Part shown: piece by piece, positions 28,672 to 59,700 of the stretch
Layout of the letters: every line of letters begins with the position of its first letter
How positions within the stretch are numbered: position 1 is the stretch's first letter
DNA from: Escherichia phage ELT1
Sequence record: MZ892903.1
DNA: 64,000 nucleotides
Reading direction: 5' to 3' (one strand)
The notes under the pieces: model-generated
Seen by the model: only the letters and a program-made list of their open reading frames with translations
Told to the model about the DNA's origin: nothing
Databases searched by the model: none
Made by a program: the position numbers and the translations under genes

Positions 28672-29652
28672 TTATTTCAGAAGAGTAACCTCAGCAATTT
28701 CTTGCCAACCGTTTTTGTCGGTCATAATAAAGTCAGCAAGATAAAGTGCAGTACGCAGTGAAACATTACGTAAACGGTTAACATTGACTTTCATCCATGA
28801 TAATGCTTTATAAGTTTCTTCATCAGAAAGACCACGCTTTTGCATCATGTCGGTTGAAAGAATAACATCTTCAACCCTGACCATAATTTCTTCATTAGTG
28901 TGAACACCCAAATCTAAATAAACTGAGCGGGACACTAATGCTTGTAAATGTGGAGCAAGTTTAGTACCACGGTCTAATTCGCGGTCAATGTCAACGTTTG
29001 TGATAAAAACAATCGTTCCTTTAAATTCAAACTCACGCTCAATGCCTTTTTCTTCTAAGTAAGAAGATGCGGTGCTCCAGCAGACTTTACGGGTCTCTCC
29101 GGTGTCCAGAGCAGCTTTCAGAAGATTAAGAATGTCCATATCAGAGAAAACATCCACATCATCAATCAAAAGGACAGAATTCTCTTCACGATTATTCCAG
29201 AGCTGTTCATAAAGACCGATACCAGAGATTTTACCGTTAATGCTTTTATATTCAATGTATCCATTATCATTTGCTTTATTTAAAGCTTTATCTAAAGAAT
29301 ACGTTTTACCAATACCCGCCGCACCAGAGATAATTAATGAACGAATGTTTCCGTTAATAATACCATTCGTCATCATTCCCATAACATTAAATCTTTTATT
29401 AATGCGGGTTTTCATATCTTCATATGATTCTTTAACTTCTTCAACTTTTACACCATCATATGAAATGTCTGATTTGTAAACCCAAACACCGCGACGCTTA
29501 CCGTCAATTTCAACAAAAACTTTACCATCTCCTTGTGCATCTACCGGAGCATTATCTGGGAACCATTCGCCTAAGAGCTCAAAAGTTCCAGAGATTTCTT
29601 TACCGAAGTAGATACCCTTATTGATAGTTACAGTTTTCATTTTATTCTCCAA
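28672..29652 (-). CDS. P-loop (AAA-type) ATPase, function unknown
   Basis: 326 aa; Walker A ISGAAGIGKTYS and Walker B VLLIDDVD. Confidence 0.55.
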   Translation of the reverse strand: MENKMKTVTINKGIYFGKEISGTFELLGEWFPDNAPVDAQGDGKVFVEIDGKRRGVWVYKSDISYDGVKVEEVKESYEDMKTRINKRFNVMGMMTNGIINGNIRSLIISGAAGIGKTYSLDKALNKANDNGYIEYKSINGKISGIGLYEQLWNNREENSVLLIDDVDVFSDMDILNLLKAALDTGETRKVCWSTASSYLEEKGIEREFEFKGTIVFITNVDIDRELDRGTKLAPHLQALVSRSVYLDLGVHTNEEIMVRVEDVILSTDMMQKRGLSDEETYKALSWMKVNVNRLRNVSLRTALYLADFIMTDKNGWQEIAEVTLLK

Positions 29653-29676
29653 TTTTACATTTGTTTTGATAGGGTA

Positions 29677-29705
29677 ATAGTATCACACTACTACCCTACT
29701 GTAAA
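29677..29705 (-). promoter_or_regulatory. T4-type early promoter (TTTACA-N17-TACTAT)
   Basis: Consensus with 17-nt spacer. Confidence 0.55.
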
Positions 29706-29709
29706 CAAT

Positions 29710-29973
29710 TTATTTTAATGTTTGCCAAATTTTTACTGCTTCGCGACGAGATACTTCTACAGCTCCAAGTTCTACAGCTTTTTGGCGTCGCCGAGCGTGT
29801 AAGTCATAATGTTTAATGCGTTTATCTTGAAACCAAGAACGTTTCATTCCTATTGCTTCTGCCATTTTATGAAGCTCTTCAATATCTCCATCAGTGAACA
29901 TATGACAATTTTTAGTTGGATGACCGCGAAGTTTCCATCCATGATTCATTAAAACATCTACGTAAACTGTCAT
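29710..29973 (-). CDS. small conserved protein, DUF4031-like (tentative)
   Basis: 87 aa; MTVYVD...HMF N-terminal pattern. Confidence 0.4.
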   Translation of the reverse strand: MTVYVDVLMNHGWKLRGHPTKNCHMFTDGDIEELHKMAEAIGMKRSWFQDKRIKHYDLHARRRQKAVELGAVEVSRREAVKIWQTLK

Positions 29974-30119
29974 TGATTCTTCTCCAAATAAGTTTCGATA
30001 ATTTTCTGAGCGAGATAAACTGCATTATCTTCAGTTGCATCTTCTAAGAAACTTTCAAAACACTCTGAAATTTCTTCTGTGTCAATCAACTTTTTTACTT
30101 CAATTGGTGTAATTTTCAT
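29970..30119 (-). CDS. small acidic protein; start trimmed past promoter read-through
   Basis: Internal ATG gives 49 aa; ORF-track extension encodes GTIQLS promoter artefact. Confidence 0.35.
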   Translation of the reverse strand: MKITPIEVKKLIDTEEISECFESFLEDATEDNAVYLAQKIIETYLEKNQ

Positions 30120-30156
30120 TTTGTTTTTCCGTTTAAGTGTTTGTTTTGATAGTTGT

Positions 30157-30185
30157 ATAGTACCATAAAGCTTTATGCTTGTAAA
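30157..30185 (-). promoter_or_regulatory. T4-type early promoter (TTTACA-N17-TACTAT)
   Basis: Consensus with upstream AAAAATTTTTCACAAA A/T element. Confidence 0.55.
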
Positions 30186-30216
30186 CAACTTTGTGAAAAA
30201 TTTTTGAAATAAAAAA

Positions 30217-30234
30217 GGGAGCCCGAAGGCTCCC
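30217..30234 (-). terminator. intrinsic terminator: GGGAGCC UUCG GGCUCCC followed by U6
   Basis: 7-bp GC stem, UUCG loop, UUUUUU tract, directly after the nucleotidyltransferase ORF stop. Confidence 0.6.
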
Positions 30235-30236
30235 TA

Positions 30237-31247
30237 TCATTTATAATAACTTCGGTGGTTTTCAAGATAGACCTTCTCAAGGAAGTCATCCCAGAAACTC
30301 ATGTCTACTGTTTTAGGCATACCGTTCTTAGAAGCTTCAGTAGATGCTGCTTCTACTTGATCGACCACATCTTCCAAAAACTCTTGAACTGTTTTAAATG
30401 GATGTTTACCCAACTTCACGTCGAGAATAAATGGAGCGTCTTGGAGTGGATAAACCAAGTCACCAGTTTTGTAAATTTCCAATAGTTGAAGTCCACCGCG
30501 ACAAGCATGGCTCAGAGCTTTCCAGTCAATACCTTCATTGGCTTCGGCCTTACGAGCACGTTCACCGTATTCAGCATCTAATTTGTTCAGTGACTGCTTA
30601 AGCTCAATAAGAGAAAGAGTTGTCTGATATTTACGACCCAACACTGTGTAAAACGTCTGTGGGCCTGTTTTCTCATGATTATGGAACACCCATTCACAGA
30701 ATTCGTTTTCTGGAAGACGATGCTTAATATCTTCAACTTTAGTGCGGCGAAGTCTATCAGGGATTCCTTCTTGATAGTCGACCCACTGGTCAGGGATTTG
30801 ATTAACTACTTTCAATACATCGCGTAATGCAGCCAAACGAGAACCCTTGACGCCGTATTTAGAAGCTTGCTTGCGGACATATCCTAAATATGATTTCATG
30901 TTAGTCGTATAAAAACGAGAACGGTTGTCTTGAATAAACTTCCACACATCAGGCAAATCAGATTTAACCACTAGTTCAGGTGGAGTGTGAAGCATATCCA
31001 ATGCTACGGTTTCACCATCTGCTGCTAATTTAAAGAAATATTTAAGACTGTATAGTTCATGGTCAATATCATCTTTGGTGTTTTTAGATGATGTGTTGTT
31101 AGTGTTTTTACTCATATGCTCTTTAACATTTCCGATAAGAATATCACGAGCAGGAGGAACAAAGATTTCTTTAAAATCTACATCAGATTCTGGAGTAGAA
31201 GTTCCATAAAGATGACTACCAAAATAAGACTTAACTACAGTTTTCAT
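30237..31247 (-). CDS. polymerase-beta-superfamily nucleotidyltransferase, function unknown
   Basis: 336 aa; N-terminal GSHLYGTSTPESDVDF (GS...DxD NTase motif) followed by helical domain. Confidence 0.55.
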   Translation of the reverse strand: MKTVVKSYFGSHLYGTSTPESDVDFKEIFVPPARDILIGNVKEHMSKNTNNTSSKNTKDDIDHELYSLKYFFKLAADGETVALDMLHTPPELVVKSDLPDVWKFIQDNRSRFYTTNMKSYLGYVRKQASKYGVKGSRLAALRDVLKVVNQIPDQWVDYQEGIPDRLRRTKVEDIKHRLPENEFCEWVFHNHEKTGPQTFYTVLGRKYQTTLSLIELKQSLNKLDAEYGERARKAEANEGIDWKALSHACRGGLQLLEIYKTGDLVYPLQDAPFILDVKLGKHPFKTVQEFLEDVVDQVEAASTEASKNGMPKTVDMSFWDDFLEKVYLENHRSYYK

Positions 31248-31431
31248 TATTCCACCTAATCATTTCAAGATATTGAACTAACTTAGCTTTAGATTTATCC
31301 AAATCCTTTTTAGCTGCTTCTATACCGTCGTATGAATATCCTTCACAATGCTCAACTGCCAATTGGTATGAATCTATTTCAACATCACGTGCTAATTTAA
31401 TGATTTTTTCAAACTGTTCACGTGTTAACAT
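31231..31431 (-). CDS. small acidic helical protein (paralog family)
   Basis: 66 aa. Confidence 0.4.
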   Translation of the reverse strand: MLTREQFEKIIKLARDVEIDSYQLAVEHCEGYSYDGIEAAKKDLDKSKAKLVQYLEMIRWNNENCS

Positions 31432-31433
31432 AC

Positions 31434-31652
31434 TTAAACTCTCGTATTATGATCAATAATTTCATCAAGAAACATATCTAACGCTTCTACAGCATTATCA
31501 ACTTTAGCTTCAAATTCTTCAATACCTGATAAGGCAAAGTTAATGCGTTCCTCATCTGCTTTACGAATTAAAGCTACCAATTCTTTAATCTTATCCGCTT
31601 GTTCGATACTAATCATTATTCCACCACATATGAAAGAGAGAATATTGCACAC
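31434..31652 (-). CDS. small acidic helical protein (paralog family)
   Basis: 72 aa. Confidence 0.4.
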
Positions 31653-31804
31653 GCCATATGAGTTGCAGCTTCATCACACATATCATAACGTTTCTTAAGA
31701 AGTTCTACAAGTTCTTCACTAGTGACTTCATCCATGTCGACGAAAAAATCACCATTAATGATGACGTAGATATTTCCTTCTTGATTAAGTGCTTCAATTT
31801 TCAT
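31616..31804 (-). CDS. small acidic protein; start trimmed past promoter read-through
   Basis: Internal ATG gives 62 aa. Confidence 0.35.
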
Positions 31805-31832: not shown

Positions 31833-31861
31833 ATAGTACCACAGCTCAAACGGAAAGTAAA
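31833..31861 (-). promoter_or_regulatory. T4-type early promoter (TTTACT-N17-TACTAT)
   Basis: Consensus with 17-nt spacer. Confidence 0.5.
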
Positions 31862-31877
31862 CCGGTAAAATGAAAAA

Positions 31878-31895
31878 AGTCTCCCGAAGGAGACT
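31878..31895 (-). terminator. intrinsic terminator: AGUCUCC UUCG GGAGACU followed by U-run
   Basis: Hairpin with UUCG loop and UUUUU. Confidence 0.55.
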
Positions 31896-44156: not shown

Positions 44157-44232
44157 TGGTGCCTCTAGAAAGATTTGAACTCTCACCATTAACCTTAGAA
44201 CGATTATATGCTATCCATTACACTATAGAGGC
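44157..44232 (-). tRNA. tRNA-Arg (anticodon UCU), CCA encoded
   Basis: Manual fold: acceptor GCCTCTA/TAGAGGC, anticodon loop GTTCTAA, T-loop GTTCAAATC. Confidence 0.75.
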
Positions 44233-44889
44233 AATTAAATTATTTACAATATCTTCTTTATAAACTTCAGCATAATGAAGTTCATATATTTCCCATCCTA
44301 ATGATTTTATAATATCATGGCGTTCTTTATAATAAGGGGCCAAAATCTTTTTCTTAGGATTGGAGTAATGTTGGTTTCCATTAACTTCAATAATAATCTT
44401 TTTATCTATTAAAGCAATATCCGCGCAATACGCTCGGTTTTTAACCGGTTGGTATTCTTCAATAAATGAAATTCCGTTTTCTATTAATTTAGATTTCAAA
44501 AATTCACAAGGCACAGATTTAAATTTTGTATTTTTCTTCCAAGGATGTTTATCGGGGTTTTCATTCAACCATTTTTTCCGAGCATTAGATATTTTTATTC
44601 TAGATTCCTCAGAGTGTTCTCTACCTAATGAAGCGGCTGACCATTTTTGTCTAGTCTCTTCCGAAATTACTACAGGAACACCAGTCTTTTTAGATACAAC
44701 ATACTGGTTTAAATTACCTGAAGCTATACGTGCTTTATTCATTGCTGCAATGGCTGATTTAGAACTTTCTTTATACAATTCCAATTTAGGGTTGGATTTA
44801 CACCATCTAGTGTGGTTAGCCATCCATCCTTTAGGTTTATTAGAAATATCAAATTCCATATTACAATGTTTACAAATTCTCATTACCAA
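44218..44889 (-). CDS. homing-endonuclease-like protein with Zn finger, NUMOD3 motif and C-terminal DUF559/Vsr-like nuclease domain (segB position)
   Basis: 223 aa; CKHC...HTRWC; SEETRQKWSAASLGREHSEESRIKIS; C-terminal YCADIALID...IIEVNG...GWEIYELHY. Confidence 0.55.
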   Translation of the reverse strand: MVMRICKHCNMEFDISNKPKGWMANHTRWCKSNPKLELYKESSKSAIAAMNKARIASGNLNQYVVSKKTGVPVVISEETRQKWSAASLGREHSEESRIKISNARKKWLNENPDKHPWKKNTKFKSVPCEFLKSKLIENGISFIEEYQPVKNRAYCADIALIDKKIIIEVNGNQHYSNPKKKILAPYYKERHDIIKSLGWEIYELHYAEVYKEDIVNNLIASIV

Positions 44890-44957
44890 TTATCTCCTAT
44901 AAAATATAGGAGTATTTATTATTTGGATAGAGCACTTAATTTACTTCGTTTAAATTA

Positions 44958-45029
44958 CTGGCGCACTTGGACTCGAACCAAGATAAAGGAGTTAACAGCT
45001 CCCCGTAATAACCTTTATACGATGCACCA
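44958..45029 (-). tRNA. tRNA-like gene, anticodon GUU (Asn) by manual fold
   Basis: T-arm CTTGG-TTCGAGT-CCAAG, anticodon loop CTGTTAA, acceptor TGGTGCA/TGCGCCA; no encoded CCA. Confidence 0.5.
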
Positions 45030-45035
45030 TTTGTT

Positions 45036-45110
45036 TGGTGACCCTGGCTGGTTTCGATCCAGCTACCTATCAGTTATGAGCTGACAGCTCTCCCATTGAG
45101 CTACAGGGCC
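45036..45110 (-). tRNA. tRNA-Ile/Met (anticodon CAU), CCA encoded
   Basis: Acceptor GGCCCTG/CAGGGTC, D-arm TAGCTCAATGGGAGAGC, anticodon loop CTCATAA. Confidence 0.75.
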
Positions 45111-45116
45111 TTGATA

Positions 45117-45189
45117 TGCTGATTGACGGAATCGAACCGCCGACGTCCTCATTACAAGTGAGGTGCTCTACCTACTGAGCTAAATCAGC
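45117..45189 (-). tRNA. tRNA-Thr (anticodon UGU)
   Basis: Acceptor GCTGATT/AATCAGC, anticodon loop CTTGTAA, T-loop GGTTCGATTCC. Confidence 0.75.
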
Positions 45190-45196
45190 GAAATTA

Positions 45197-45283
45197 CGGA
45201 GGCGATAGGATTTGAACCTATGAGTCGCCGGAGCGACTGCCGGTTTTCAAGACCGGTGCATTAAACCACTCTGCCACGCCTCC
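45197..45283 (-). tRNA. tRNA-Ser (anticodon UGA), long variable arm
   Basis: Acceptor GGAGGCG/CGCCTCC, anticodon loop CTTGAAA, extra arm, T-loop GGTTCAAATCC. Confidence 0.75.
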
Positions 45284-45285
45284 AG

Positions 45286-45359
45286 TCTCCGTGGCAGGAT
45301 TTGAACCTACGACATTCTGCTCCCAAAGCAGACGCTCTACCAAACTGAGCTACACGGAG
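45286..45359 (-). tRNA. tRNA-Pro (anticodon UGG)
   Basis: Acceptor CTCCGTG/CACGGAG, anticodon loop TTTGGGA. Confidence 0.75.
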
Positions 45360-45369
45360 TAAATTAAAT

Positions 45370-45443
<74 letters not shown>

Positions 45444-45448
45444 AAATT

Positions 45449-45535
45449 TGGTGCGAGAAGTGGGACTCGAACCCACAAGGAAATCATTCCGCAGCATTTT
45501 AAGTGCTGTGCCTTTACCAATTTGACCATTCTCGC
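45449..45535 (-). tRNA. tRNA-Leu (anticodon UAA), long variable arm, CCA encoded
   Basis: Acceptor GCGAGAA/TTCTCGC, anticodon loop CTTAAAA, T-loop GGTTCGAGTCC. Confidence 0.75.
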
Positions 45536-45536
45536 G

Positions 45537-45609
45537 CTGGGAATAAAGGACTCGAACCTTTGCATCTAGCAGTCAAAGTGCTATGCCTTACCAACTTGGC
45601 TAATTCCCA
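45537..45609 (-). tRNA. tRNA-Gln (anticodon UUG)
   Basis: Acceptor TGGGAAT/ATTCCCA, anticodon loop CTTTGAC, T-loop GGTTCGAGTCC. Confidence 0.7.
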
Positions 45610-54721: not shown

Positions 54722-56704
54722 ATGGCAAATACCCCTGTAAATTATCAATTAACAAGAACAGCAAATGCTATTCCCGAGATATTCGTCGGGGGTACATTTG
54801 CTGAAATAAAACAAAACCTCATTGAATGGCTCAATGGTCAAAATGAATTTTTGGATTATGATTTTGAAGGCTCAAGATTAAACGTTCTGTGCGACCTTTT
54901 GGCTTATAATACATTGTACATTCAACAGTTTGGTAATGCTGCCGTGTATGAAAGCTTTATGCGTACTGCTAATTTGCGTAGTTCAGTAGTTCAAGCTGCA
55001 CAAGATAATGGATATTTACCTACTTCAAAATCAGCTGCTCAAACTGAAATTATGCTAACTTGTACAGACGCATTGAATAGAAATTACATTACTATTCCTC
55101 GTGGTACTCGCTTTTTAGCATATGCAAAAGATACTTCCGTTAATCCTTACAACTTTGTATCTACCGAAGATGTTATTGCTATTCGCGATAAAAATAACCA
55201 ATATTTTCCACGTTTAAAATTAGCCCAGGGGCGTATAGTAAGAACTGAAATCATTTATGATAAATTAACACCTATTATCATTTATGACAAAAATATAGAT
55301 AGAAACCAAGTTAAACTATACGTTGATGGAGCAGAATGGATTAACTGGACAAGAAAGTCAATGGTTCATGCTGGTTCTACATCGACAATTTACTACATGC
55401 GTGAAACTATTGATGGAAATACTGAGTTTTATTTTGGTGAAGGCGAGATTTCTGTTAATGCGGCAGAAGGAGCATTGACCGCTAATTACATTGGAGGTCT
55501 TAAACCTACCCAGAACTCTACGATTGTTATTGAGTACATCAGTACTAACGGCGCAGATGCGAATGGCGCAGTCGGATTTTCATATGCAGATACATTGACA
55601 AATATAACTGTCATCAACATTAATGAAAATCCAAACGATGACCCAGATTTTGTTGGGGCAGATGGCGGCGGCGATCCAGAAGATATTGAACGTATTCGCG
55701 AATTGGGTACTATTAAACGCGAAACCCAGCAACGCTGCGTAACTGCGACTGACTATGATACATTCGTTTCAGAGAGATTTGGTTCTATTATTCAAGCAGT
55801 TCAGACGTTCACTGATTCTACTAAACCTGGTTATGCATTTATTGCTGCTAAACCTAAATCAGGGCTATATTTAACTACTGTACAGCGCGAAGATATTAAA
55901 AATTATCTCAAAGACTATAATTTAGCTCCTATTACGCCATCAATTATTTCTCCTAATTATCTTTTTATTAAGACTAATTTAAAAGTCACATATGCTTTAA
56001 ATAAGCTACAAGAATCCGAACAGTGGCTCGAAGGTCAAATAATTGATAAAATTGATCGTTATTATACCGAAGACGTAGAAATTTTTAACTCATCTTTCGC
56101 TAAATCTAAGATGTTGACATATGTAGATGATGCAGATCACTCTATCATTGGCTCATCAGCGACAATTCAAATTGTTCGTGAAGTACAAAACTTCTATAAA
56201 ACGCCTGAAGCAGGTATTAAATACAATAATCAAATAAAAGATCGTTCTATGGAATCTAATACGTTTTCATTTAATTCCGGACGAAAGGTTGTAAATCCTG
56301 ATACTGGCTTAGAAGAAGATGTATTATATGACGTTCGTATAGTATCAACAGACCGAGATTCTAAAGGAATTGGTAAAGTTATTATTGGTCCATTTGCTTC
56401 GGGTGATGTTACAGAAAATGAAAACATTCAGCCATATACAGGTAATGATTTTAATAAATTAGCAAGTTCCGATGGACGCGACAAATACTACGTTATCGGT
56501 GAAATAAATTATCCAGCTGACATGATTTATTGGAATATCGCTAAAATTAATTTAACATCCGATAAATTTGAGGTTCAGACTATTGAGCTATATTCTGATC
56601 CAATAGACGATGTTATTTTCACACGCGATGGTTCACTGATCGTATTTGAAAATGATTTACGTCCACAATACTTAACTATCGATTTGGAGCCTATATCACA
56701 ATGA
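54722..56704 (+). CDS. 6: baseplate wedge protein
   Basis: 660 aa as in T4 gp6. Confidence 0.9.
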   Translation: MANTPVNYQLTRTANAIPEIFVGGTFAEIKQNLIEWLNGQNEFLDYDFEGSRLNVLCDLLAYNTLYIQQFGNAAVYESFMRTANLRSSVVQAAQDNGYLPTSKSAAQTEIMLTCTDALNRNYITIPRGTRFLAYAKDTSVNPYNFVSTEDVIAIRDKNNQYFPRLKLAQGRIVRTEIIYDKLTPIIIYDKNIDRNQVKLYVDGAEWINWTRKSMVHAGSTSTIYYMRETIDGNTEFYFGEGEISVNAAEGALTANYIGGLKPTQNSTIVIEYISTNGADANGAVGFSYADTLTNITVININENPNDDPDFVGADGGGDPEDIERIRELGTIKRETQQRCVTATDYDTFVSERFGSIIQAVQTFTDSTKPGYAFIAAKPKSGLYLTTVQREDIKNYLKDYNLAPITPSIISPNYLFIKTNLKVTYALNKLQESEQWLEGQIIDKIDRYYTEDVEIFNSSFAKSKMLTYVDDADHSIIGSSATIQIVREVQNFYKTPEAGIKYNNQIKDRSMESNTFSFNSGRKVVNPDTGLEEDVLYDVRIVSTDRDSKGIGKVIIGPFASGDVTENENIQPYTGNDFNKLASSDGRDKYYVIGEINYPADMIYWNIAKINLTSDKFEVQTIELYSDPIDDVIFTRDGSLIVFENDLRPQYLTIDLEPISQ

Positions 56705-59700
56705 CAGTAAAAGCACCTTCAGTCACTAGTCTCAGAATTTCCAAGTTATCCGCAAATCAGGTGCAAGTACGCTGGGATGACGTTGGTGCTAATTTCTACT
56801 ATTTTGTAGAAATCGCTGAGACAAAAACAGACTCGGGGGAAAATCTCCCGAGTAATCAATACAGATGGGTTAACTTAGGATATACTGCAAATAACAGCTT
56901 CTTTTTTGATAATGCTAATCCATTGACATCGTACATTATTAGAGTAGCTACCGCTGCGCAGGATTTTGAGCAGTCTGATTGGATTTATACTGAAGAGTTT
57001 GAAACTTTTGCTACAAATGCTTATACATTTCAAAACATGATTGAAATGCAATTAGCTAATAAATTCATTCAGGAAAAATTTACTCTTAATAATTCTGACT
57101 ATGTCAATTTTAACAATGACACTATAATGGCTGCATTGATGAATGAATCGTTTCAATTCAGCCCATCATATGCTGATGTTTCATCAATAAGTAATTTTAT
57201 TATTGGTGAAAATGAGTATCATGAAATACAAGGTTCTATTCAGCAAGTATGTAAGGATATTAACAGAGTTTATTTGATGGAATCAGAAGGGATTCTATAT
57301 CTTTTTGAGCGTTATCAACCTGTAGTTAAAGTATCTAATGATAAAGGACAAACCTGGAAAGCTGTAAAGCTCTTCAATGACCGCGTAGGATATCCTTTAT
57401 CTAAGACAGTATATTACCAATCTGCGAACACAGCATACGTTCTAGGATACGACAAGATTTTCTATGGCCGCAAATCGACTGATGTTAGATGGTCAGCTGA
57501 TGATGTCAGATTTAGTTCGCAGGATATAACATTCGCTAAACTCGGTGACCAATTACATCTAGGATTTGATGTAGAAATTTTTGCCACTTACGCGACTTTA
57601 CCAGCTAATGTATATCGCATTGCAGAAGCTATTACTTGCACCGATGATTACATTTACGTTGTCGCCAGAGACAAAGTTAGATACATAAAAACGAGTAATG
57701 CACCTATAGATTCTGATCCATTATCTCCAACGTATTCGGAAAGGCTATTTGAACCTGATACAATGACTATAACCGGAAATCCTAAAGCAGTATGTTATAA
57801 AATGGATTCTATTGGTGATAAAGTCTTTGCTCTTATTATTGGTGAAGTTGAAACATTAAATGCTAATCCTAGAACATCAAAAATAATTGATTCTGCCGAT
57901 AAAGGAATATATGTTTTAAATCATGCCACGAAAACATGGAAAAGAGTTTTTGGCAACACTGAAGAAGAAAGAAGACGTATTCAACCCGGATATGCGAATA
58001 TGTCAACTGACGGTAAATTAGTTTCTCTATCTTCGAGTAATTTTAAATTTTTAAGTGATAATGTTGTTAATGACCCTGAAACTGCAGCGAAATATCAGTT
58101 AATCGGTGCTGTTAAATATGAATTTCCTCGTGAATGGTTAGCTGATAAGCATTATCATATGATGGCATTTATAGCGGATGAAAAATCTGATTGGGAGACT
58201 TTTACTCCTCAACCAATGAAATACTACGCAGAACCGTTCTTTAACTGGTCTAAAAAATCTAACACACGTTGTTGGATAAACAACTCTGATAGAGCTGTAG
58301 TAGTTTATGCTGATTTAAAATATACTAAAGTTATTGAAAATTTTCCAGAAACATCTCCAGATAGATTAGTTCATGAATACTGGGATGATGGTGATTGTAC
58401 GATAGTAATGCCAAATGTTAAATTCACGGGATTTAAAAAATACGCGTCTGGGATGCTTTTTTATAAATCTTCTGGTGAAATAATTTCTTACTATGATTTT
58501 AACTATCGTGTGAGAGATACAGTAGAAATTATTTGGAAGCCAACTGAAGTATTTTTAAAAGCATTTTTACAAAACCAAGAACATGAAACCCCTTGGTCGC
58601 CTGAAGAAGAGCGTGGATTAGCTGACCCTGATTTAAGACCATTGATTGGCACAATGATGCCTGATTCTTATTTGTTGCAGGATTCGAATTTTGAGGCATT
58701 TTGCGAAGCATACATTCAATATCTTTCTGATGGATATGGAACTCAGTATAACAATTTACGAAATTTAATTCGTAACAAATATCCACGAGAAGAGCATGCA
58801 TGGGAATATTTGTGGTCAGAGATATATAAAAGAAACATTTATTTAAATGCTGATAAACGCGATGCTGTTGCGAGATTCTTTGAATCACGTAGCTACGATT
58901 TTTATTCTACTAAAGGAATTGAAGCATCATACAAGTTTCTTTTTAAAGTTCTTTATAATGAAGAAGTTGAAATTGAAATTGAATCTGGGGCTGGTACTGA
59001 ATATGATATAATCGTTCAATCTGATTCTTTGACTGAAGATTTAGTAGGACAAACGATTTATACGGCAACAGGAAGATGTAATGTTACTTATATAGAAAGA
59101 AGCTATTCTAATGGTAAATTGCAATGGACCGTAACTATTCATAATCTTTTGGGAAGATTGATTGCCGGTCAAGAAGTTAAAGCAGAAAGACTTCCTAGTT
59201 TTGAAGGCGAAATTATTCGTGGAGTTAAAGGGAAGGATTTGCTTCAAAATAATATAGACTATATTAATAGAAGTCGGTCATATTATGTAATGAAAATTAA
59301 ATCCAATTTGCCTTCTTCCCGCTGGAAATCTGACGTTATTCGTTTTGTTCATCCAGTAGGATTTGGATTTATAGCAATTACCCTTTTAACAATGTTTATT
59401 AATGTTGGTTTAACTCTTAAACACACAGAGACTATAATTAATAAATACAAAAACTATAAATGGGATTCTGGATTGCCTACTGAATATGCTGATAGAGTAG
59501 CTAAATTAACTCCAACCGGTGAAATTGAGCATGATTCAGTAACAGGCGAAGCAATTTATGAGCCTGGCCCAATGGCTGGCGTAGAATATCCTCTTCCTGA
59601 TGACTATAATGCTGAAAATAATAATTCAATATTTCAAGGTCAATTGCCATCTGAACGACGTAAATTAATGAGTCCTCTATTTGACGCTTCTGGAACAACA

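Follow-up and report, generated by a model that had tools for sequence, protein, structure and literature searches.

We analyzed a 64,000-nucleotide stretch of the genome of Escherichia phage ELT1 (MZ892903.1; hereinafter, the window), in which a minus-strand ORF (30237..31247) encodes a 336-aa protein with the N-terminal sequence MKTVVKSYFGSHLYGTSTPESDVDF. This gene is the ortholog of nrdC.11 of phage T4: the window protein aligns with T4 NrdC.11 (NP_049709) over 336 of 336 residues at 96% identity and is 100% identical to YP_009284092 from phage HY03, and T-even phages match the nrdC.11 region at 94-97% DNA identity. The flanking genes are likewise orthologs of T4 genes, namely nrdC.10, mobD.3, mobD.4, mobD.5, rI.-1, rI, rI.1 and tk. 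In T4 and the other T-even phages, the protein has the same length, and its gene likewise lies with nrdC.10 on one side and the mobD/rI genes on the other. The original prediction, made from the sequence alone, had correctly recognized a 336-aa ORF with a GS...DxD signature (G10-S11 and D22-x-D24) in the nrdC-rI stretch. The novelty implied by its mention of many unannotated ORFs did not hold up: T4 nrdC.11 was assigned to COG3541 nucleotidyltransferases already in 2006 (PMC1524935), the product name in RefSeq is 'nucleotidyltransferase' for both T4 and HY03, and a preprint of December 2025 named T4 NrdC.11 as an RlaP and placed it in cluster 5 of the sequence similarity network (SSN) of PF10127 (PMC12776372). 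Thus, prior publications already cover this gene with its annotation and family, as well as the hypothesis of a role in RNA repair, and no discovery is added here. A deletion spanning nrdC.11-mobD.3 is tolerated by T4 on laboratory hosts (PMC9825161). On the plus strand across nrdC.11, no second feature was found, the ORFs there being at most 76 aa long and no Rfam family being detected.

In the direction of transcription, nrdC.11 is preceded on the minus strand by three small genes identified as ORFs and by comparison with T4, namely a mobD.5-like gene (62 aa; 31616..31804), a mobD.4-like gene (60 aa; 31434..31616) and a mobD.3-like gene (66 aa; 31231..31431), of which the latter two also show a domain match to DUF7438. 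The last 17 nt of the mobD.3-like gene overlap the start of nrdC.11, the Shine-Dalgarno sequence of which (AGGTGG) lies inside the mobD.3-like gene. A motif scan detected a T4 early-promoter-like site, GTTTACT-N17-TGGTACTAT (31833..31862, minus), that would drive mobD.5-mobD.4-mobD.3-nrdC.11, and upstream of this site, after rI.-1, a terminator scan predicted a terminator (AGUCUCC-UUCG-GGAGACU-U5; 31878..31895, minus) that shields the four-gene unit from upstream transcription. Similar sites occur elsewhere: the motif GTTTAC-N16-19-TAYTAT, which agrees with the T4 early-promoter consensus, is found 10 times in the window, 10 of 10 on the minus strand, with 0.14 occurrences expected (starts at 2608, 16660, 28235, 29677, 30157, 31833, 42955, 43292, 47104 and 47468). 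One of these sites (30157..30186, minus) lies just downstream of the nrdC.11 terminator and begins a separate unit that consists of a 49-aa ORF followed by a DUF4031 gene, and another one (29677-29706, minus) precedes nrdC.10. The early-promoter-like sites split this accessory region into short transcription units. Transcription of nrdC.11 is predicted to be early, the gene being the last of four in a unit located between two UUCG terminators.

The terminator 3' of nrdC.11 (30209..30235, minus) starts 2 nt past the TGA stop codon and reads AGGGAGCC-TTCG-GGCTCCCT followed by TTTTTATTTC (30235-30216), with a stem of 8 bp, 6 of them GC, that is capped by a UUCG loop and followed by a U-tract. The predicted folding energy is -17.7 kcal/mol (z = -4.3), a value not reached by any of 200 shuffled sequences. 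At the orthologous loci L006, L007 and L009, a UUCG hairpin is also present 3' of the gene, with stems that differ from that in the window and yet pair, the complementary variants 3' of the orthologs being AAGGAACC/GGTTCCTT, AAAAGGCC/GGCCTTTT and AAGGACCC/GGGTCCTT. Because the hairpins recur in the orthologs with different but complementary stems, this is a conserved, real terminator, one that the T4-like relatives and the window have in common. With its GC-rich hairpin, the immediate U-tract, the location 3' of a stop codon and the conservation, the sequence has the features of a Rho-independent terminator, and the GGGAGCC-UUCG-GGCUCCC-U6 element originally proposed directly 3' of the ORF is therefore confirmed. 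Its assignment as nrdC.11's own terminator is another matter: given that the promoter-like site and the mobD.5-, mobD.4- and mobD.3-like genes precede nrdC.11, and that the next promoter-like site follows at 30186-30157, the hairpin closes a four-gene early unit, and a single-gene unit is not borne out.

The surroundings of the gene differ from those in T4 in two respects. Between nrdC.10 and nrdC.11, the window contains an extra 493-bp stretch (29653-30145) that is absent from T4 and encompasses the gene for an 87-aa DUF4031 protein (29710-29973, minus; PF13223, E = 1.6e-21) and the 49-aa ORF (29970-30119, minus); in related phages (L004, L012, L014, L020-L022 and L029), the DUF4031 gene is found at varying places in the nrdC.11 region. 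Upstream, the window lacks the mobD homing-endonuclease cassette of T4 (mobD, mobD.1, mobD.2 and mobD.2a; T4 56456-58155), with the junction at 31238-31257. mobD.3 and T4 mobD share the same 3' end (...NNENCS), so that a repeat of about 20 bp marks the insertion junction. Given these two indels, there is an indel hot-spot on either side of nrdC.11. The G+C content over the 3' two-thirds of nrdC.11 (30200-31000) is 0.41-0.435, compared to 0.31-0.37 in the genes around it, which may be either a compositional signature of foreign origin or simply an effect of coding constraint. Farther away, nine tRNA genes are clustered on the minus strand (44157-45609), including a tRNA-Asn(GTT) gene (44958-45029). 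T4 has eight tRNAs and is not known to encode one for Asn, so the tRNA-Asn(GTT) of the window would be an extra one.

The window protein matches the RlaP family profile (PF10127) with 43.6 bits, well above the gathering score of 23 (E = 3.9e-11), with an alignment that covers no more than residues 7-135 of the protein and positions 24-143 of the 249 in the profile. A similarly partial match (46.7-61.4 bits) was obtained for 5 relatives encoded beside RNA-repair genes, 4 of them bacterial and one from a phage contig. The match to PHROG 388, annotated as 'nucleotidyltransferase', is highly significant (E = 1.8e-136). These matches substantiate the proposed Pol-beta-type nucleotidyltransferase, and among the profiles that had been suggested for comparison, PF10127 is the one to which the protein belongs. 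The MNT profile (PF01909) scored 13.7 bits, under the cut-off of 21, and the window protein, 336 aa long with extra domains and no HEPN partner, does not resemble a minimal nucleotidyltransferase; searches of NCBIfam and PADLOC with the window protein produced no match.

The catalytic motifs of the window protein are G10-S11, D22-V-D24 and D62, and a further motif, D241-W-K243-x3-H247-x2-R250, is present in the C-terminal part. Among 216 relatives, G10 is conserved in 216, D22 in 214 and D24 in 215, position 62 is occupied by D in 212 and by E in 4, and Y131, H247, R250 and P267 have no exception among the 216. In an alignment of 70 sequences, for which relatives at 33-55% identity were used, the invariant residues are G10, S11, G15, S21, D22, D24, N56, D62, Y131, R230, K243, H247, R250 and P267. 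By sequence, then, the protein is a member of the RlaP family that carries the Pol-beta catalytic set, and because the third catalytic acid, the loss of which had been named as the observation to speak against the original prediction, is retained, the enzyme is most likely active. An exhaustive HMMER search detected homologs in 3486 clusters (50% identity) at E ≤ 1e-3 and in 835 at E ≤ 1e-30, the best matches being nearly all full length, and homologs are present in 1505 of 50,697 phage records.

The AlphaFold2 model of the window protein, built with the alignment of 70 sequences (pLDDT 93.7, pTM 0.82), contains a Pol-beta core formed by strands 2-9, 23-30, 44-48 and 61-67, in which D24 is located on strand 23-30, D62 on strand 61-67, and D22 just before strand 23-30. 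The core is followed by helices in the region 99-149 and by a helical C-terminal region (213-335) with a terminal helix (316-330). The helical domain that had been predicted to follow the nucleotidyltransferase core is thus present but is not purely helical: it is interrupted by a beta-rich insert (residues ~154-208; window ~30624-30788) that consists of five strands, modeled mostly with pLDDT of 90-98. The length of this insert varies across the family, and it is left unaligned by the Pfam RlaP model of 249 positions, compared to which NrdC.11 is about 90 residues longer; the insert may be an RNA-binding element. With the Pseudomonas enzymes PfRlaP and PaRlaP, NrdC.11 shares the GS motif with the three Asp residues and, as far as the model shows, the order of an N-terminal nucleotidyltransferase core and a C-terminal helical region, the last helix of which in the PfRlaP crystal structure packs back onto the core domain; it differs in belonging to SSN cluster 5 rather than 1a and in the lack of an rtcB-rtcA operon. 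A search of a copy of the PDB, with the single protein and with the profile of 70 sequences, revealed no relevant solved structure, and the PfRlaP structure was not found in that copy. When the conserved positions in the C-terminal helices were inspected by sequence, no HEPN RNase motif (Rx4-6H) was identified.

Linkage to RNA ligases is part of the Pfam definition of the RlaP family and gave the family its name, and the relatives of NrdC.11, like other PF10127 proteins, are linked to RNA ligase operons in a subset of genomes. Full-length relatives at 33-54% identity are encoded in bacterial and archaeal assemblies, and at 14 of 72 bacterial loci, an RNA-repair gene is located within 3 kb (the remaining 58 lack one). 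These neighbors include the Pnkp ligase domain (PF16542; 6 loci), RtcB (PF01139; 4 loci), Ro60/TROVE (4 loci) and Hen1 (PF12623; 3 loci), along with PseT- or Rnl1-like genes. In three phage contigs (L075, L077 and L078; ~40-46% identity), PseT, Rnl1 and NrdC.11 genes are contiguous on one strand, and in three others (L057, L068 and L065), a gene for Rnl1, PseT or an Rnl2-like protein is found within a few kb; altogether, 6 of 78 viral loci have PseT, Rnl1 or Rnl2-like neighbors and 72 do not. Genes for PseT, Rnl1 and Rnl2 are present at other places of the T4 genome, with rnlA and pseT about 80 kb from nrdC.11, and there is no RNA ligase or kinase beside nrdC.11 either in T4 or in the window, where the neighbors are DUF7438 and DUF4031 proteins and an AAA-type NTPase. 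The T4-type subfamily has the full catalytic set, is very widespread and has relatives that recur beside four RNA-repair systems; the T4 enzyme is therefore a good experimental target.

Two other neighborhood associations were considered and set aside. NrdC.10 (28672-29652 in the window, minus) is a 326-aa P-loop NTPase (GAAGIGKT) whose matches to nSTAND3, AAA_16, AAA_14 and AAA_22 are all below the respective thresholds. Its gene usually follows nrdC.11 in T4-like relatives of at least 60% identity; however, most loci below ~60% identity lack it, and in the window, the two genes are set apart by a terminator and two promoter-like sites along with two inserted genes, which argues against NrdC.10 as an obligate partner. 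In 9-10 loci of the KVP40/Aeromonas type, nrdC.11 lies near the gene for a 492-aa protein, which we read from its sequence as presumably NAMPT-like, and the gene for a 352-aa NUDIX-domain protein that is probably NadR-like. We treat these NAD-salvage neighbors as synteny within that lineage and not as a functional link.

RNA repair was discovered in T4, where Pnk and Rnl1 act against PrrC, and nucleotide excision of the RloC type is expected to defeat this repair. RloC removes the wobble nucleotide, and in vitro, T4 Pnk and Rnl1 mostly give products that lack it (PMC3458546). According to a prediction by Iyer and colleagues, phage RlaPs put back the nucleotides that RloC-type nucleases remove, ahead of ligation (PMC7824862). 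The Pseudomonas RlaPs add 1-2 NMPs to an RNA 3'-OH, with a preference for Mn2+, and label neither DNA nor E. coli proteins in vitro; with a mimic of nicked tRNA, they favor the 3' end created by the break in the anticodon over the acceptor end, and they partly rescue the aminoacylation of tRNA that lacks one nucleotide of the anticodon loop (PMC12776372). Based on the analogy with these enzymes, the most likely role of NrdC.11 would be to replace a nucleotide lost from nuclease-cut tRNA prior to ligation by Pnk and Rnl1. Under this scheme, a host anticodon nuclease of the RloC type would cut the tRNA and also take out a nucleotide, and T4 Pnk (PseT) would convert the cut ends to 3'-OH and 5'-P. 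In the N-terminal core of NrdC.11, G10-S11, D22, D24 and D62 would hold two divalent metal ions, probably Mn2+, and the NTP, whereas for the invariant Y131, R230, K243, H247 and R250 a place in the mechanism can be inferred; the enzyme would add one or two NMPs without a template, returning a nucleotide to the Pnk-made 3'-OH end, and Rnl1 would then seal the break. The 3'-OH left on the RNA after RlaP addition is a stated problem for RtcB (PMC12776372), whereas this product would suit Rnl1, because Rnl1 requires exactly 3'-OH and 5'-P ends.

We put the probability that nrdC.11 encodes an active RlaP Pol-beta nucleotidyltransferase, with an accessory part in phage tRNA repair together with Pnk and Rnl1, at about 0.6. 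The analysis itself establishes which gene this is and to which family it belongs, that the catalytic residues are kept, the fold, the arrangement of the operon and the RNA-repair genes beside relatives; that RNA is the substrate, how many nucleotides are added, a partnership with Pnk and Rnl1 and what the biological target is are what we infer in this proposal. Among the three candidate roles put forward originally, RNA repair is favored by the family linkage, the neighbors of the relatives and the activity of the bacterial RlaPs, and nucleotide signaling and protein nucleotidylation are disfavored. Several considerations speak against the repair role. The assayed RlaPs belong to SSN cluster 1a and T4 NrdC.11 to cluster 5 (PMC12776372); the C-terminal half of NrdC.11, as far as can be judged from the sequence, is diverged and carries the beta-rich insert; addition without a template would yield the right nucleotide in only a fraction of cases and its modification in none; T4 on laboratory hosts tolerates the loss of nrdC.11-mobD.3 (PMC9825161); and in the T-even genomes, as well as near most relatives, an RNA ligase or kinase gene does not adjoin nrdC.11. 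If the proposal is correct, a nucleotide-restoring phage enzyme would be the third component of T4 RNA repair and a case of counter-counter-defence.

The same absence of linkage to ligase genes in T-even phages is compatible with general tailing of RNA 3' ends uncoupled from ligation, for example, in the repair of tRNAs with trimmed CCA ends or in the tagging of host or phage transcripts by one or two nucleotides to alter their stability. In line with such an activity, the assayed RlaPs labeled E. coli RNAs of rRNA, tRNA and fragment size, accepting each of the four NTPs, and acted on single-stranded RNA as well (PMC12776372), and the products of the nine tRNA genes of the window need intact 3' ends. 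We nevertheless consider tailing unlikely given that, on the nicked-tRNA mimic, these enzymes prefer the 3' end at the break to the acceptor end (PMC12776372) and that the genes recurring beside the relatives encode ligases, kinase-phosphatases, Hen1 and Ro60, as opposed to CCA-adding or decay enzymes.

Nucleotidylation of a protein or a small molecule, in the style of MNT antitoxins, which AMPylate HEPN toxins, or of kanamycin and lincosamide nucleotidyltransferases, with a host defense protein or metabolite as the target, has a structural parallel in that ANT(4') and other antibiotic nucleotidyltransferases share the two-domain layout of a Pol-beta core and a helical domain. The likeness is at the level of the fold only (8-12% identity); for ANT(4'), whose acceptors are small molecules, the identity is 8-10%, the TM-scores are about 0.3, and there is no family-level sequence match. 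Moreover, E. coli proteins remained unlabeled by the assayed RlaPs (PMC12776372), a HEPN partner gene is absent next to nrdC.11, and the neighborhoods of the relatives point to RNA repair, making this role very unlikely.

Still less probable is a template-independent synthase that resembles HalB of the Hailong system and makes free or protein-primed oligo(deoxy)nucleotides, which would serve as a signal or decoy, for example, by keeping a DNA-gated channel of the Hailong type closed. HalB (PDB 9dbh, 9dbi and 9dbj) is a 217-aa protein that has the channel protein HalA as a partner and makes long, tyrosine-primed poly-dA; the window protein is 15% identical to it, with no match at the profile level, no match in PADLOC and no HalA-like partner, and the assayed RlaPs halt after 1-2 additions and leave proteins unlabeled (PMC12776372). 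A broader reading, quite unlikely in our estimate, is that the NrdC.11 subfamily, given its beta-rich insert and the invariant Y131, H247 and R250, is no mere filler of RNA ends by 1-2 nt and instead a HalB-like template-independent synthase, with an oligonucleotide product that works as a decoy or signal against a host defense. More modestly, NrdC.11 could be the so far missing answer of phages to anticodon nucleases that excise a nucleotide, such as RloC; if so, the phage reversal of RloC damage, a long-standing question, becomes directly testable in T4. A cGAS/DncV-like CD-NTase that makes or mimics cyclic nucleotide signals shares with NrdC.11 only the Pol-beta signature GS...DxD...D and appears exceedingly improbable, considering that no SMODS, CD-NTase or OAS family was detected in Pfam at E ≤ 1, that PADLOC, as noted above, produced no match, and that cGAS, DncV and CdnE chains are absent among the structure matches listed.

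Tracing nrdC.11 orthologs also brought up several irregularities in database records. In phage ESCO10 (OM386655), an apparent pseT-nrdC.11 junction, suggested by the product name 'polynucleotide kinase', was rejected because a tblastn search with T4 PseT gave no match there. The product names in this record track the T4 order rIII-31-cd-pseT-alc-rnlA, whereas the DNA encodes homologs of NrdC.11 and NrdC.10, so the names look shifted or mis-assigned. In the T4 RefSeq record (NC_000866.4; L002), residue 101 of NrdC.11, a V in the window protein, translates as X, a sign that the reference sequence has an ambiguous base there. Finally, one NrdC.11 ortholog is labeled 'putative HNH homing endonuclease', and many in GenBank and UniRef carry the label 'thioredoxin', which apparently was inherited from the gene name nrdC.
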